Source: a virus. From it: 64,000 nt of DNA. Shown here in pieces: positions 24,492-58,070 of this stretch (position 1 is the stretch's first letter; each line of letters starts with the position of its first letter). The stretch is from positions 6,062-70,061 of IMG/VR virus record IMGVR_UViG_3300028731_000007; one strand, given 5' to 3'. Under the pieces are notes generated by a model, which did no database searches, was not told the origin of the DNA, and saw nothing but the letters and a program-made list of their open reading frames with translations. The position numbers and the translations under genes were made by a program.

Positions 24492-24848
24492 CTATTTAGC
24501 GTTGATAATGCCAACCAATTTGTAGTAGCCATTGGTGTTACAGATAAACTGCAGATTTTTAATTTTTGACAGGTCCTTCATCAAATTATGGATTTCTAAG
24601 ATTCCGCTAGGGTCCCAAGACGTACCTCTGAGGCCCGGAATACTGCTTTTACTAGCCTTCAAATAGATCGATATGACATTATCCGCTTCTTCACCATAAC
24701 TAACTCCATCAATAATATGGTGCTTGGAGAATTCATGTTTCAAAAGTTCAGCAATTTCTGGATTTGAGGCCTCAAGTTGTGCAAAACCTGGATCGCGACT
24801 AATATCTGTTGCCACTAATCTTTGTGCTGCATTAACTTTGATGTTCAT
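24492..24848 (-). CDS. Hypothetical protein with N-terminal AAxRL motif
   Basis: MNIKVNAAQRLVA. Confidence 0.7.
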   Translation of the reverse strand: MNIKVNAAQRLVATDISRDPGFAQLEASNPEIAELLKHEFSKHHIIDGVSYGEEADNVISIYLKASKSSIPGLRGTSWDPSGILEIHNLMKDLSKIKNLQFICNTNGYYKLVGIINAK

Positions 24849-26170
24849 TTGCTATCCTTTGATTGTTGATCAAGTTCCTCTTGTGCTTTGGTCCACGCAG
24901 CGTCAGGTATATCACCTGACTCAACGTAGTCAGCAATTGCATCAATCACTTTACCTACAAGTTCGTCGTCCAGTTTATCGCTAGTTTCGGCTGTAATCAG
25001 TCTTGAAGCAATGCTTAAGGTTAGTGAACTATGGACACCATGTCGACTATTTTTGGTGCCTGGTCCACCTTGACGTTGACGGCGGTCTATTTCTTCGTCG
25101 CTTAATGTATCATATTCGTGTTTGGATAGCGGTACCCAATCGCCGTTTTTCCAATATCCATATTTATTTGCTTCAGCTTCTTCATCTGACCACCCTTTCT
25201 TTCTAGGCTTATCGTTTCCTAGTTTCTTAATGCTCGATCCAGCACCGACCACACCTTTCTTTACCAGACTATATATTGCCGGTGCACCCAAGTGCTTAAC
25301 AGCCATGAAAGCTACTAGTCCAACACCACCTGAGGCACCCAGTACACCAGCCATAGCTGCACTGCCTAGGATATTACCGACCATTGATGCAATCTTCTTT
25401 ACATCGCCTTCCTGCGTCTTACCATTCAATAGTCTGTGAGTTGCACCAATACCCGATAGTAGGCCTCCACCGTCCCTTATAATGCCTCTAATCAACCCTT
25501 TCTTCTTAGCCTCAGCTTTAACCTTGGAAGCTGCGGTTTTGCGTTGTGGACTACTTGGTTTCTTATCCTCTGGTGTTATTTTGGGTTTACTGCTTTTAGT
25601 AGGTGCTTTAACCGGCACCTTAGACTGGGGTTTTGGTTCAGGACTATCCACTCCTGACTTGTCCTTAGCTTCAGGTTTCCCTTTAGCTTTAGGTTCAGGA
25701 GCAGAATTGGGTTCAGGTTTCAACAAATCTTTCTTATTCTGCTCAAATTTCTCTTGTTCGGTTTTGGGTGCGGGTGTGGCTGCGGGTTTCTGCTTCTGAG
25801 TTTCGCTTATTGATTTAGGCAACGTCTTCTGATCCCTGGTCACGGTCACCGGCTGATTACGATCAGTGGGTCTAGATTTGGGTTTATTGTCCTCAGATTT
25901 TATGTCATCCGCGTACTTGGAACCCGGATGTTCCTCAACGTAGTCTTCTTGTTCTGGTTTTGAGAGCTTATCAAACCATTCTTCATTGAGTTTGTATTCT
26001 TTGTCGGGTTGAGGGTTATTGACCTTATAGAATTTATTAGGCTGATTCTTTTTGACTGGCTTTTTAGTCTCTAACGGCTGAGGTCTAGTGCTCTGCATTT
26101 GAGCCTGCCCCGTAGGTGCTGCACTAATAGTTTGGGTGCTCAATAATCGAAAAGCAGCGTTGAGTTTCAT
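24845..26170 (-). CDS. Putative internal virion protein: K/P-rich region plus hydrophobic segment; AAxRL motif
   Basis: MKLNAAFRLLS; low-complexity basic N-terminal half; Gly/Ala-rich hydrophobic stretch IASMVGNILGSAAMAGVLGASGGVGLVAFMAV. Confidence 0.7.
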   Translation of the reverse strand: MKLNAAFRLLSTQTISAAPTGQAQMQSTRPQPLETKKPVKKNQPNKFYKVNNPQPDKEYKLNEEWFDKLSKPEQEDYVEEHPGSKYADDIKSEDNKPKSRPTDRNQPVTVTRDQKTLPKSISETQKQKPAATPAPKTEQEKFEQNKKDLLKPEPNSAPEPKAKGKPEAKDKSGVDSPEPKPQSKVPVKAPTKSSKPKITPEDKKPSSPQRKTAASKVKAEAKKKGLIRGIIRDGGGLLSGIGATHRLLNGKTQEGDVKKIASMVGNILGSAAMAGVLGASGGVGLVAFMAVKHLGAPAIYSLVKKGVVGAGSSIKKLGNDKPRKKGWSDEEAEANKYGYWKNGDWVPLSKHEYDTLSDEEIDRRQRQGGPGTKNSRHGVHSSLTLSIASRLITAETSDKLDDELVGKVIDAIADYVESGDIPDAAWTKAQEELDQQSKDSK

Positions 26171-26215
26171 TGTTGTTCCTGATCATAATTTGGTCCATAA
26201 CTATTCGGCGCATAA

Positions 26216-56152: not shown

Positions 56153-57601
56153 TTATAGTCCACTGTCAGTTCGAAAATTAGAAAAGGCCCACACATCTGA
56201 GTCGTCGTGCTCGTCGTCATACAGTTCACGATTTGCATGGGCTAGGGGCGTCCAATCGCTGTAGACCGCAGCAATAGGCCCAAGGAAGGGCGAAGCGATG
56301 TTTAACACGAATTCAAATGGTAGGTCCTCTGGTTCGCAATAACCTTGATTAGGATTGTCCAGCATCCAAACAATAGCACCTAACATTGAACCCACTACCT
56401 GCAATGTTGTTGCGTTTTGCCCTTCTACCAGTTCCCGTGATTCTTCGATAGAAAGTTGCGATCCGTACCACAGGGCATTCCGTTCATGACCTAGAAGCAA
56501 GACCCCTAGTTCATCGATTCCGCTCTGAATACTATTTTTAGCAATTCGGGTCTTTCTGTGCATCCACAATTCTTGTCCCTTCATTTCATGGACAGACGCA
56601 ATTGCAGCATCACACGGTTGATACGCATAGTAACAGGTCGGTCGATAATTCTCTGTACTAAAGTATTCGCTGATAGTGATGGCTTCCGAGTGCTGAATCA
56701 AATAGCCGTTGAATGTACCGCCCAAAGGTACCCACGACTTAACCGTGGTCTCCACACCCGGTTGCTCTAGATAGAGCACAGAGCCACCAGCGAGTTCTTT
56801 ACCGTCAGCAGGAATCTCTTTTTCGTGCGTGCCCCACCCCATTTCTGCTGGTGCTCGACCCTCAGCCCAGAACCCTTCACAGCTCCAGGTGTTGACGAAT
56901 TCATTAACACGCTTGGGTTCTTTCAGAATTTGTGTATCGCGCTCAGCCGTTTGAATTATTTTCACATTCAGGGCTTCAGCTAGCATTCCCCATTGCTCTT
57001 GGGACTCAGGGGTCCCTGTTTTCAGACCTGTATCTTTTGCGAGTTTGAGCAACGCCGCTTTAACAAAATGCGAAACTAGACCTGGATTAGCTCCATGCGT
57101 CACCACACAGGTAGAGGCCCCAGGATAGGCCGAGGCCATTCTTCGCATTTCTTGATGCGTTGTGTAGAGCGTGCGTTCACCCAGTTCCGGAATGATTTCG
57201 TCGGGTTCAGTAGCCCAACGTTCGATAGACGTGTCAATGTAGAGCACATTATTTTGTAGGCACCACTCAACGATTTCTAGTCCGTCTATGTTCAAGCTTA
57301 CGTTAATCAGTAAGTCACCGGGACTCAATAATTCATTTAGTGTTGGCACCAAATTAGATTTGACGATTTCACGATGAACGTAAGTTACACCCAAATCTTC
57401 GTATTTAGCAAATTCAGGGCGTACCTCTTTATCCAGAACGACTACCGCGCTAGGACTTACATCGAGGTGACGTAGAATTACGGGGAGAATCGATTGACCA
57501 ACACCACCGAAGCCTAGGACCAGGATATGTCCTCTGTGAGTTGCTAGTTTTTCGTGTTGATCCTCCAGCAGTCGTTGTGCAGCGTGTATTTGAACCTTCA
57601 T
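56153..57601 (-). CDS. hss: Homospermidine synthase
   Basis: GFGGVG NAD-binding motif, LYIDTSIE.W, HGANPGLVSHF, NTWSCEGF, QPCD, GIDELGVLL, NATTLQV; ATG 57601 with AAGGA RBS. Confidence 0.92.
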   Translation of the reverse strand: MKVQIHAAQRLLEDQHEKLATHRGHILVLGFGGVGQSILPVILRHLDVSPSAVVVLDKEVRPEFAKYEDLGVTYVHREIVKSNLVPTLNELLSPGDLLINVSLNIDGLEIVEWCLQNNVLYIDTSIERWATEPDEIIPELGERTLYTTHQEMRRMASAYPGASTCVVTHGANPGLVSHFVKAALLKLAKDTGLKTGTPESQEQWGMLAEALNVKIIQTAERDTQILKEPKRVNEFVNTWSCEGFWAEGRAPAEMGWGTHEKEIPADGKELAGGSVLYLEQPGVETTVKSWVPLGGTFNGYLIQHSEAITISEYFSTENYRPTCYYAYQPCDAAIASVHEMKGQELWMHRKTRIAKNSIQSGIDELGVLLLGHERNALWYGSQLSIEESRELVEGQNATTLQVVGSMLGAIVWMLDNPNQGYCEPEDLPFEFVLNIASPFLGPIAAVYSDWTPLAHANRELYDDEHDDSDVWAFSNFRTDSGL

Positions 57602-57632
57602 ATCAATCCTTTTAAGCACTTTCACTTTCAGC

Positions 57633-58070
57633 TCACGCAACGCTGATAATTTTTGTTTTATTTCCTATGTCCTCTAATTCTACTTCGTGCTCACCTTTAC
57701 TGAAATGATTGACCTCGGCGGACCTAGCCTTTGCCCAGTCGTTTGCATAAAGCTTGGCCTCAACGTCTTTTAACGGCGCGTCAACGATCACGAAGTCCTC
57801 GTTGTCCGGACGTTCATACGCATACTGCAGTGTATTTACCCAACCCTCGAAAGCATCTGCTTCCATCTTGGAGACCGCGACTAGGCGTAAGGCTGCTTCA
57901 ACTTTAGTGCTACCTGTCATTTTGTGATAAATATAATTAGTCAAAGCATAGGGCTCTTTCTTGCCGCTGCTTTTCTTGGCCTTATCCTCAGCGTCCTTCC
58001 ATTTATGTTCAAGACTTTTCTTGCTACCTTTGCCTTGTTTTACGTCATGTTTAATTATGTTATTGGGCAT
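57633..58070 (-). CDS. Hypothetical two-domain protein with internal AAxRL motif
   Basis: Basic N-terminal domain, then KVEAALRLVA; GGAG RBS before ATG 58070. Confidence 0.7.
   Translation of the reverse strand: MPNNIIKHDVKQGKGSKKSLEHKWKDAEDKAKKSSGKKEPYALTNYIYHKMTGSTKVEAALRLVAVSKMEADAFEGWVNTLQYAYERPDNEDFVIVDAPLKDVEAKLYANDWAKARSAEVNHFSKGEHEVELEDIGNKTKIISVA

Follow-up and report, generated by a model that had tools for sequence, protein, structure and literature searches.

A short peptide tag on unrelated head-module proteins of phiRSL1-like jumbo myophages, a candidate capsid-targeting signal

The window and its late gene block

The window analysed here comprises 64,000 nucleotides of the IMG/VR virus record IMGVR_UViG_3300028731_000007 (positions 6,062 to 70,061), which is most of a 70.7-kb contig, and has a G+C content of 45%. 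An earlier note on its sequence had drawn attention to a short peptide with a core of the type A-A-x-R-L, recurring on 12 proteins that seemed to share nothing else, and had proposed that it addresses these proteins to the capsid. This peptide, referred to below as the tag, is the subject of the present analysis; as a stand-alone sequence it is given as MKLNAASRLLAS.

The tagged genes lie in a late block on the minus strand (22.8-58.1 kb). This block encodes tail tube and tail sheath (PF04984/PF17482), the major capsid protein (MCP; phrog_2522), a virion protein (phrog_16710), a probable scaffolding protein, a head maturation protease (phrog_18299), a 1552-amino-acid SNF2-domain protein (PF00176), a 510-amino-acid connector-like protein (phrog_17327), a dCMP deaminase, a NUDIX hydrolase (PF00293) and a homospermidine synthase (PF03435, PF16653). 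The MCP is 82% identical to that of the Burkholderia phages BcepSaruman and BcepSauron, 77% to that of the Ralstonia phage phiRSL1, 73% to that of BCSR5 and 61% to that of the Achromobacter phage Motura, all of them myophages with genomes of 221-264 kb. The gene order of the block matches ORF109 to ORF146 of phiRSL1, and its head and tail module is orthologous to and syntenic with that of the phiRSL1-like jumbo myophages (Mieseafarmvirus, Sarumanvirus and allies). The NUDIX protein of the window is also recorded, as an identical copy, on a contig of 230,175 bp. From the MCP identities, the gene order and this identical copy it follows that the contig is a fragment of a jumbo phage; the window belongs to a jumbo myophage of the phiRSL1/BcepSaruman type. 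In more distant MCP relatives (Xanthomonas PhiXhv-12) the genes near the capsid gene are arranged in another order.

The tag in the window

All 16 peptides listed in the earlier note were found in the open reading frames (ORFs) to which it had assigned them, all on the minus strand. They are given here with their scores on a matrix trained on copies from relatives only:

24810-24836, minus strand: VNAAQRLVA, residues 5-13 of the 118-amino-acid protein 24492-24848 (MNIKVNAAQRLVATD); 22.8 bits
26138-26164, minus strand: LNAAFRLLS, residues 3-11 of the 441-amino-acid protein 24845-26170 (MKLNAAFRLLST); 22.6 bits
24989-25015, minus strand: SIASRLITA, a doubtful copy near the C-terminus of 24845-26170; 3.2 bits
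28918-28944, minus strand: VRAAFRLVA, residues 7-15 of the 257-amino-acid protein 28189-28962; 12.2 bits
28636-28662, minus strand: IKAALRLFR, an internal copy at residue 101 of 28189-28962; 10.1 bits
46417-46443, minus strand: (M)QLKAALRLTE, a C-terminal copy 5 residues before the stop of 46405-46878; 16.0 bits
47213-47239, minus strand: ITAALRLLA, N-terminus of 46868-47248 (phiRSL1 ORF124 family); 17.8 bits
48429-48455, minus strand: VHAAQRLKA, residues 3-11 of 48114-48461 (phiRSL1 ORF120 family, with 8 tagged orthologues); 17.9 bits
49286-49312, minus strand: TNARQRILA, a variant, residues 3-11 of 49022-49318; 13.3 bits
51584-51610, minus strand: VYAASRLLA, residues 7-15 of 50858-51628; 18.7 bits
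52900-52926, minus strand: TNAAQRLKA, residues 5-13 of 51649-52938 (3-11 with the start at 52932); 23.5 bits
52813-52839, minus strand: VKAAARICA, a weak second copy in 51649-52938, directly N-terminal to the conserved body ELPKFRYIDD; 8.5 bits
56122-56148, minus strand: IKAASRLIA, N-terminus of the NUDIX hydrolase (true start 56151)
55597-55623, minus strand: VNAASRLVN, second tag, near the C-terminus of the NUDIX hydrolase; 18.2 bits
57563-57589, minus strand: IHAAQRLLE, N-terminus of the homospermidine synthase (true start 57601)
57876-57902, minus strand: VEAALRLVA, residue 63 of 57633-58088; 15.9 bits

The 79 curated proteins of the window (19,799 amino acids) contain the strict pattern AA.RL 13 times, against a mean of 0.47 (standard deviation 0.67, maximum 3) in 300 within-protein shuffles. 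With a hydrophobic residue added in front (h.AA.RL) there are still 13 matches, against 0.12 in the shuffles. A looser six-frame screen of the whole contig gave just one additional strict AA.RL, outside the true coding frame. Ten of the 15 copies of a looser pattern begin within the first 10 residues of their protein (chance fraction 0.040; binomial P 2.6e-11), which upholds the N-terminal bias noticed earlier. All 15 fall in the late block (10,796 amino acids) and none in the other 9,003 amino acids, to which the replication genes belong; judged by gene position, the tag is thus not equally frequent in non-virion proteins. The independent scoring matrix, trained on 78 copies from relatives and none from the window, found 14 window sites of at least 10 bits (10-23.5), the next best site reaching 9.6 bits and the background having a mean of -28.8 (standard deviation 8.3). 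Two of the listed copies, SIASRLITA and VKAAARICA, are weak on this scale. These results confirm that the tag is real and far above chance.

In the case of the NUDIX hydrolase and the homospermidine synthase the longest ORF overstates the N-terminus, and the tag is N-terminal with the Met at 56151 and 57601, respectively. Read by eye, AAGGA-like ribosome sites stand 6-9 nt 5' of most Met codons that precede a tag. No such site was seen 5' of the Met at 57920, and in phiRSL1 the corresponding copy is internal to ORF112. The codons vary among the copies (GCA, GCT, GCC and GCG for Ala, AGA, CGA, CGT and CGC for Arg, TTA, TTG, CTA, CTG and CTT for Leu). Because synonymous codons differ in this way the conservation is at the level of the peptide, and an element acting at the DNA or RNA level is ruled out.

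Apart from the NUDIX hydrolase and the homospermidine synthase, the ten other tagged proteins of the window had no meaningful match in Pfam or PHROGs, with two sub-threshold matches only. In relatives, the 24845-26170 family has a zeta-toxin kinase domain (Zeta_toxin match in L013:2958-4508), a SprT-like metalloprotease domain occurs on a tagged protein (L009:1226-2560), and another tagged protein has a weak lethal-factor-like zincin match below the Pfam threshold. Protein 57633-58088 consists of a very basic N-terminal domain of 60 residues, the tag and a C-terminal domain that is acidic. Two relatives (L014, L023) encode this acidic part in a gene of its own, tagged at the N-terminus, and in the BcepSaruman counterpart the basic domain stops just past the tag. 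The site corresponding to the C-terminal copy of 46405-46878 is internal in phiRSL1 ORF125, where a further domain follows. Several internal or C-terminal copies arise at such joints between tagged modules (57633-58088, and 46405-46878 compared with phiRSL1 ORF125). The gene 57633-58088 adjoins those of the homospermidine synthase and the NUDIX hydrolase in the window.

Distribution and consensus of the tag in the clade

Loci were fetched from IMG/VR around the connector-like gene (15 loci) and around the protease gene (50 loci). In a set of 19 loci, made up of the window, the 15 connector-gene loci and three annotated relatives, 99 distinct ORFs carried the tag 1-9 residues after the Met. The tag was present in BcepSaruman, BcepSauron, phiRSL1, BCSR5, Motura and IMG/VR contigs, and the richest loci of 21 kb encoded 12-14 tagged proteins. 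With the tag removed, the carriers fell into about 55 families without detectable similarity to each other, a few of which are false positives of the pattern; this bears out the earlier statement that the carriers are otherwise unrelated.

The consensus is M-K-(x-K)-[LIV]-[NE]-A-A-x-R-L-[LAV]-A-[STA], or in short form MK(VK)LNAAxRLLA[ST]. A profile was made from the 88 copies with common spacing and anchored on the Arg as position 0. Upstream it shows M/I/V at -7, K at -6, L/I/V at -5, N/E at -4, Ala at -3 and at -2 (79 of the 88 copies in each case) and T/S/Q/A at -1. Downstream there is Leu at +1 in 84 of the 88 copies, L/A/V at +2, Ala at +3 in 66 and S/T/A at +4 in 50; beyond +4 no position is conserved in these copies. 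The tag-bearing phages range from 38 to 59% in G+C content and retain the same residues, which on the sequences compared requires selection at the peptide level.

The tags of phiRSL1 mostly have one extra residue (AAxxRL; ORF109, 111, 120, 123, 124, 127 and 133), and in ORF112 and ORF125 the tag is internal. In the complete 231-kb genome of this phage convincing tags occur only at 58-78 kb, in the head module, and in ORF210, which adjoins the portal gene ORF211, with ORF208 as a less convincing case. Proteins of phiRSL1 that are annotated as belonging to the tail, baseplate or fibres were all untagged in this whole-genome scan. The start of phiRSL1 ORF126 (69491) may be annotated too far downstream: translation from an in-frame Met at 69428 gives MYDIKAAVNRLQLTAD, with a typical tag of the phiRSL1 type (alternative reading 69428-69727 of the phiRSL1 record; L016:14843).

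In many relatives one to three small tagged genes directly follow the protease gene and precede the scaffold gene (ORF133 in phiRSL1). The corresponding interval of the window (38281-38607) is a gap of 327 nt without a convincing ORF, and the C-terminal tail of the window protease is longer.

Portability of the tag

The homospermidine synthase offers a direct comparison of tagged and untagged forms. In a set of 120 homologues the tag opens the 15 nearest sequences (metagenomic, 57-69% identical), directly before the motif QKLAxHxG-R-I-x-x-GFG, whereas enzymes of the bacterial type (469-470 amino acids) start with MQKLARPxGRIV and lack it. In the nearest phage synthases the tag immediately precedes the point at which the bacterial proteins begin. 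The earlier note had named cellular homologues with the same peptide as evidence that would count against an address, and the bacterial enzymes do not carry it. One subtype of the synthase occurs in both states, with the tag in P0011 (MTVKAASRLLGSTKYHKPEGK) and without it in P0019 (MDKVGNIQLDGFTKYHKPEGK), which is of the phiRSL1 type. The phiRSL1 enzyme, which has no tag, is reported to be enzymatically active (PMC9992855), so the tag is not needed for catalysis. The tag is therefore a portable add-on. As far as these sequences go, what its natural gain or loss on the synthase demonstrates is that the sequence, and not the function, can be transferred.

In the AlphaFold 2 (AF2) model of the NUDIX hydrolase the core has a predicted local distance difference test score (pLDDT) of 80-94 and residues 1-24 score below 50, with residues 2-15 forming a helix that precedes the confidently modelled fold. 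Confidence is low around the C-terminal copy as well. The N-terminal tag is present in all 8 aligned orthologues, in one of them in degenerate form. The C-terminal copy is retained in three lineages (the window, P0122 and L014) that are 50-64% identical, and in P0122 it begins with MNIKVNAAQRL, like the start of a gene. On the sequences, retention of this second copy argues for a binding element rather than a cleavage site alone. Pro or Gly occurs inside the tag in only 3 of the 88 copies. The hydrophobic moment is raised for a helix (1.35, against 0.94 in controls), and about equally at beta periodicity.

Head maturation protease, scaffolding protein and MCP

Three products of the late block are of interest as possible partners of the tag:

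38608-39513, minus strand: prohead (head maturation) protease, candidate tag-trimming enzyme (phrog_18299, E 8e-83)
36637-38280, minus strand: probable scaffolding protein, candidate receptor, between protease and MCP (PHROG label 'ATPase' only)
34639-35730, minus strand: MCP, candidate receptor (phrog_2522, E 1e-97)

A profile search with the protease against the sequences in the PDB gave no match, and its relatives were found by fold comparison alone. The AF2 model of residues 60-290, built from an alignment of 37 sequences, had a pLDDT of 85. Its best structural match was T4 gp21 (5jbl; Z 9.4, root mean square deviation 2.3 A over 124 residues); some 30 entries of herpesvirus proteases came next, with Z of 6-8. 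One His and the Ser of TYSMG are invariant in the 37 sequences and could be the catalytic pair. On the strength of the model, 38608-39513 is a prohead protease of the gp21/assemblin fold.

The scaffold-like protein has an acidic N-terminal half of low complexity and a conserved C-terminal half. The latter contains the motif P-x-T-V-x-A-A-L-x-R-P (TVHAAL, about 40 residues before the C-terminus) and ends with Y-S-V-x-A-x-A-V-L-x-G-x-x-P-L-P-F. Its tail bears some resemblance to the tag. In the window VNAAAVLSGK is the best match within the scaffold (5.8-6.5 bits), and in one relative (L051) the tail VEASARLAG is a full match with 13.3 bits. The idea that the tag mimics the scaffold tail is an unproven lead, the tail being the best match in just 3 of 33 scaffolds; in many of them an internal VRGASRLV motif, whose Arg is not conserved in the window, scores higher.

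The N-terminal 45 residues of the MCP are conserved in 47 loci (M-x-x-K-V-K-V-R-A-S-K-T-P-x-V-A-A-S-E-Y...G-E-[IL]-N-A-S). N39, A40 and S41 are invariant or nearly so (loci L025-L074), and YRF follows VAASE. The start of the MCP resembles that of the tag (KVKLNAA), and the conserved MCP stretches may be maturation cleavage sites.

A complex of four chains, each with its own alignment (protease residues 60-290, the C-terminal half of the scaffold, the MCP and a tagged N-terminus of 40 residues), was predicted with a score of 0.00 and a pLDDT of about 50 for the other chains; the prediction gives no answer either way and was not used as evidence.

A papain-family cysteine peptidase (22812-23573, minus strand; PF00112, E 3e-19) is encoded at the end of the late block. 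Homologues were seen in two of the fetched loci only (L053 and L067), in the second of which the peptidase gene directly precedes a tagged gene. As a cognate protease of the tag it is ruled out, since the complete genome of phiRSL1 has tags and no homologue of this peptidase.

Comparison with known targeting and processing signals

The closest parallel is the capsid-targeting sequence (CTS) of the T4 proteins IPI, IPII, IPIII and Alt. It too is a peptide of about 10 residues at the extreme N-terminus of unrelated, fast-evolving proteins, and its carriers are likewise encoded by a myophage with a prohead protease of the gp21 type. The T4 leader is MKTYQEFIAE. The consensus MK(VK)LNAAxRLLA[ST] has no similarity to this leader, so that homology of the two peptides is not indicated. 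Unlike the CTS, the tag is not followed by a conserved L/I-x-E site. It is used on 12 carriers in a window of 64 kb and on about 55 families in the 19 loci; metabolic enzymes are among the carriers, and some proteins have a second copy at the C-terminus. In T4 the CTS is enough to bring a foreign protein into the head (Mullaney and Black 1996, summarised in PMC9024508).

In phage P1 the enzyme DarB is guided by its N-terminal residues into the head, to be delivered together with the DNA (PMC9024508). That signal has about 30 residues and, unlike the tag, is described in the paper for DarB alone and not as one common to several proteins (PMC9024508). The late block has a large protein of the SNF2 type as well. 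It is encoded in the middle of the head module (40471-45129, minus strand), is conserved in all relatives and recalls both P1 DarB and packaged polyvalent proteins. In contrast to DarB with its N-terminal signal, the SNF2 protein is one of those without the tag.

Three papers on jumbo myophages of the phiKZ type (phiKZ, 201phi2-1 and SPN3US) describe a protease of the gp21 fold that processes many head and ejection proteins (PMC7411985, PMC5694885, PMC10052503). The tag differs from their propeptides in being a 12-residue consensus without a conserved Glu. The propeptides are long and dissimilar and have only a three-residue cut site (S/A/G-x-E) in common; we know of no address peptide common to phiKZ-like phages.

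Short, conserved peptides on unrelated enzymes are also known from encapsulins. They bind to the inner face of a shell of the HK97 fold and can be transferred to foreign proteins. The peptides of Family 1 encapsulins are C-terminal and of another sequence, and encapsulins have no DNA, portal or protease. The tag resembles them as a short conserved peptide appended to unrelated enzymes, binding to the MCP being only a candidate; it differs from the Family 1 peptides in its N-terminal position and its sequence.

Herpesvirus assemblin cuts at V/L-x-A|S, and the Prp protease of Firmicutes removes N-terminal leaders from L27 and from the capsid and scaffold proteins of phage 80alpha at KLNLQFFA|S. 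Such leaders or sites end in hydrophobic-x-Ala, with Ser next, and are cut as the capsid matures. The tag is like them at its start (K-L-N) and at its end (L-L-A-S), a likeness that offers a lead only. Unlike in the Prp system, no Prp homologue was seen here, and the isolated relatives infect Burkholderia, Ralstonia and Achromobacter, not Firmicutes. The sequence of the tag differs from those of the T4, P1, phiKZ-like and encapsulin signals. As far as the genes at hand indicate, its use extends to many more proteins, among them metabolic enzymes, and to the whole clade. Literature searches with sequence strings of the tag and by topic found no description of it, two key phiRSL1 papers being outside their scope.

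Function of the tag

A short N-terminal peptide common to several unrelated phage proteins, which is what characterises a CTS in the T4 sense, is present in this clade. By analogy we favour, with moderate confidence, the explanation that the tag is a T4-like capsid-targeting signal, possibly trimmed by the prohead protease. The appended short helix, unrelated to the fold of its carrier, would bind a component of the assembling prohead (the inner face of the MCP, the scaffold core or the protease), and the bound carrier would become enclosed in the head. The adjacent protease of the gp21/assemblin fold may then trim the tag, and the carrier would probably exit with the DNA at infection. The proposed cargo comprises varied, fast-changing small proteins and enzymes: here the NUDIX hydrolase, the homospermidine synthase and the small protein with a basic and an acidic domain, in relatives also domains of the SprT-like metalloprotease and the zeta-toxin-like kinase kind. 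It is by this reasoning that we infer that the tagged proteins are in the virion, what the receptor may be, that the tag is cleaved and that its carriers are ejected into the host.

Several features speak for the capsid address proposed in the earlier note, namely the N-terminal position of the tag, its unrelated carriers, its clade-wide occurrence, its place in the head module and not among the replication genes, its absence from the bacterial synthases, its location outside the NUDIX fold and the adjacent protease of the gp21/assemblin fold; the processing that the note had coupled to loading finds no conserved cleavage residue. To judge by gene position, the restriction of the tag in the phiRSL1 genome to the head module and the portal neighbourhood fits head cargo. 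Metallopeptidase and SNF2 domains are among the many domains of the polyvalent proteins that phages package and inject (PMC5512222). The tagged SprT-like and Zeta_toxin domains and the SNF2 protein of the module fit such an injected set, which is no proof.

Other observations weigh against this explanation. The strongest candidate for packaging, the large SNF2 protein, is untagged both in the window and in four relatives. A Glu as expected for cleavage of the gp21-like or phiKZ-like kind is found at +5 in 9 of the 88 copies only, so that cleavage is without sequence support at the clade level; the L-x-A-[S/T/A] at which conservation stops could be a site of different specificity. The same count rules out a general A-[ST]-E cleavage site, which RLKATE and RLASTE in phiRSL1 had suggested. 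One tagged gene (28189-28962) sits between the genes for tail sheath and tail tube, where BcepSaruman and BCSR5 also have a tagged counterpart, and several copies of the tag lie inside a protein or at its C-terminus. What was analysed in the Matilda preprint was cell pellets, not virions. The paper on PaBG, a member of a sister group, makes no mention of processing.

It might be thought that the tag serves chiefly for recognition and cutting by the prohead protease, as a short propeptide that does no targeting itself. The cut, at h-x-A|[A/S/T], would then lie within K-L-N-A|A or else follow R-L-L-A|S, a type of site that recalls those of herpesvirus assemblins (V/L-x-A|S). The gp21/assemblin fold of the protease would suit such a site, and the conserved part of the tag stops precisely at A(+3)-[S/T/A](+4). 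Strings of the type h-x-A-[AS] are moreover conserved in the N-terminus of the MCP (KVRAS, VAASE and GE[IL]NAS), and similar ones occur in the scaffold (TVHAAL) and at the junction in the 51649 family, where V-x-A and then h-ELPKF follow each other (h-x-A before h-E-L-P-K-F in 4 of the 6 tagged orthologues listed). Such strings are of low information, however, and too short for a test of enrichment. A P3-P1 site alone would explain neither the invariant Arg-Leu nor the strict N-terminal position, and the C-terminal NUDIX copies would be pointless as cut sites. We therefore regard this explanation as unlikely on its own; it also overlaps with capsid targeting, since in T4 targeting and cleavage share one peptide. 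Another structure of phage or host (tail, neck, a baseplate site, an assembly chaperone or a membrane) might be what the tag binds, in which case the carriers would stay outside the head. The tagged gene that always lies between the sheath and tube genes points this way, as do ORF208 and ORF210 of phiRSL1 at the edge of the baseplate/portal block and the nature of the peptide, which is short, has a raised hydrophobic moment and is nearly free of Pro and Gly. Yet the annotated phiRSL1 tail, baseplate and fibre proteins are untagged, soluble enzymes are among the carriers, and neither the length nor the polarity of the peptide suits it to anchoring in a membrane or to secretion, for which it is too short and too polar; together these points make such a destination improbable.

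Finally, the tag could be a by-product without any addressing role, a leader spread by cassette recombination or kept for translation initiation or protein half-life. Cassette exchange at a shared leader is known from the internal-protein loci of T-even phages. Genes have been fused or split at tags (57633-58088 compared with L014 and L023, and 46405-46878 compared with phiRSL1 ORF125), and the C-terminal NUDIX copy of P0122 looks like the start of another gene. But the DNA differs between copies, in which synonymous codons are free to vary, the same residues in phages of such different G+C content imply selection on the peptide, and an effect on translation would not need an invariant Arg-Leu 6-10 residues into the protein. 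We consider an origin of this kind very improbable.

A bolder form of the capsid-targeting explanation would make the tag a general cargo-loading code of the whole jumbo-phage clade: any protein starting with MK-h-N-A-A-x-R-L-h-A would be enclosed and injected by way of binding to the MCP or the scaffold, similar to the binding of encapsulin peptides to their shell, and the code could be transferred to foreign proteins. This we put forward tentatively, as a possibility that is more doubtful than not.

Other genes of the late block

A gene for a D12-class N6-adenine DNA methyltransferase (26216-27118, minus strand; PF02086) has been inserted next to the tail tube gene, with a tagged gene on its other side. 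The structural module also contains two HNH-type endonuclease genes. One (33452-34492, minus strand; phrog_559) lies just 3' of the capsid gene, and the other (47277-47603, minus strand) matches phiRSL1 ORF122, as judged by eye from the C-terminal CxxCHDRRH motif.

A different N-terminal motif, (T/S)-x-(A/I)-K-A-A-L-x-x-A-G, is distinct from the tag. It is carried by 47617-48162 and 39929-40426 (both minus strand), a PKD-domain protein and an ORF130-like protein, and the same type is found in phiRSL1 ORF121 (QAKAALTAAG) and ORF130 (SKIKEAARAAG).

Significance for phiRSL1-like jumbo phages

Were the tag to act as a capsid-targeting signal, a list of the internal and injected proteins of jumbo phages of the phiRSL1 type could be drawn up from sequence alone; for this group the only virion protein count that we found cited in reviews is 25, for phiRSL1. 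The list would include unexpected cargo, such as a polyamine synthase, a NUDIX hydrolase, a zeta-toxin-type kinase and a metalloprotease, as candidates for early takeover of the host or for counter-defence. The 12-residue tag could serve to load foreign proteins into a large capsid, as has been done with the T4 signal. It would, to our knowledge, be the first case of one address peptide kept across a phage clade spanning 38-59% G+C and several host genera, and this clade-wide scale would make the receptor findable by genetics or structure. Should the clade-wide code hold as well, the full injected arsenal of each of these phages, a dozen or more proteins per head module, would be readable from its sequence.

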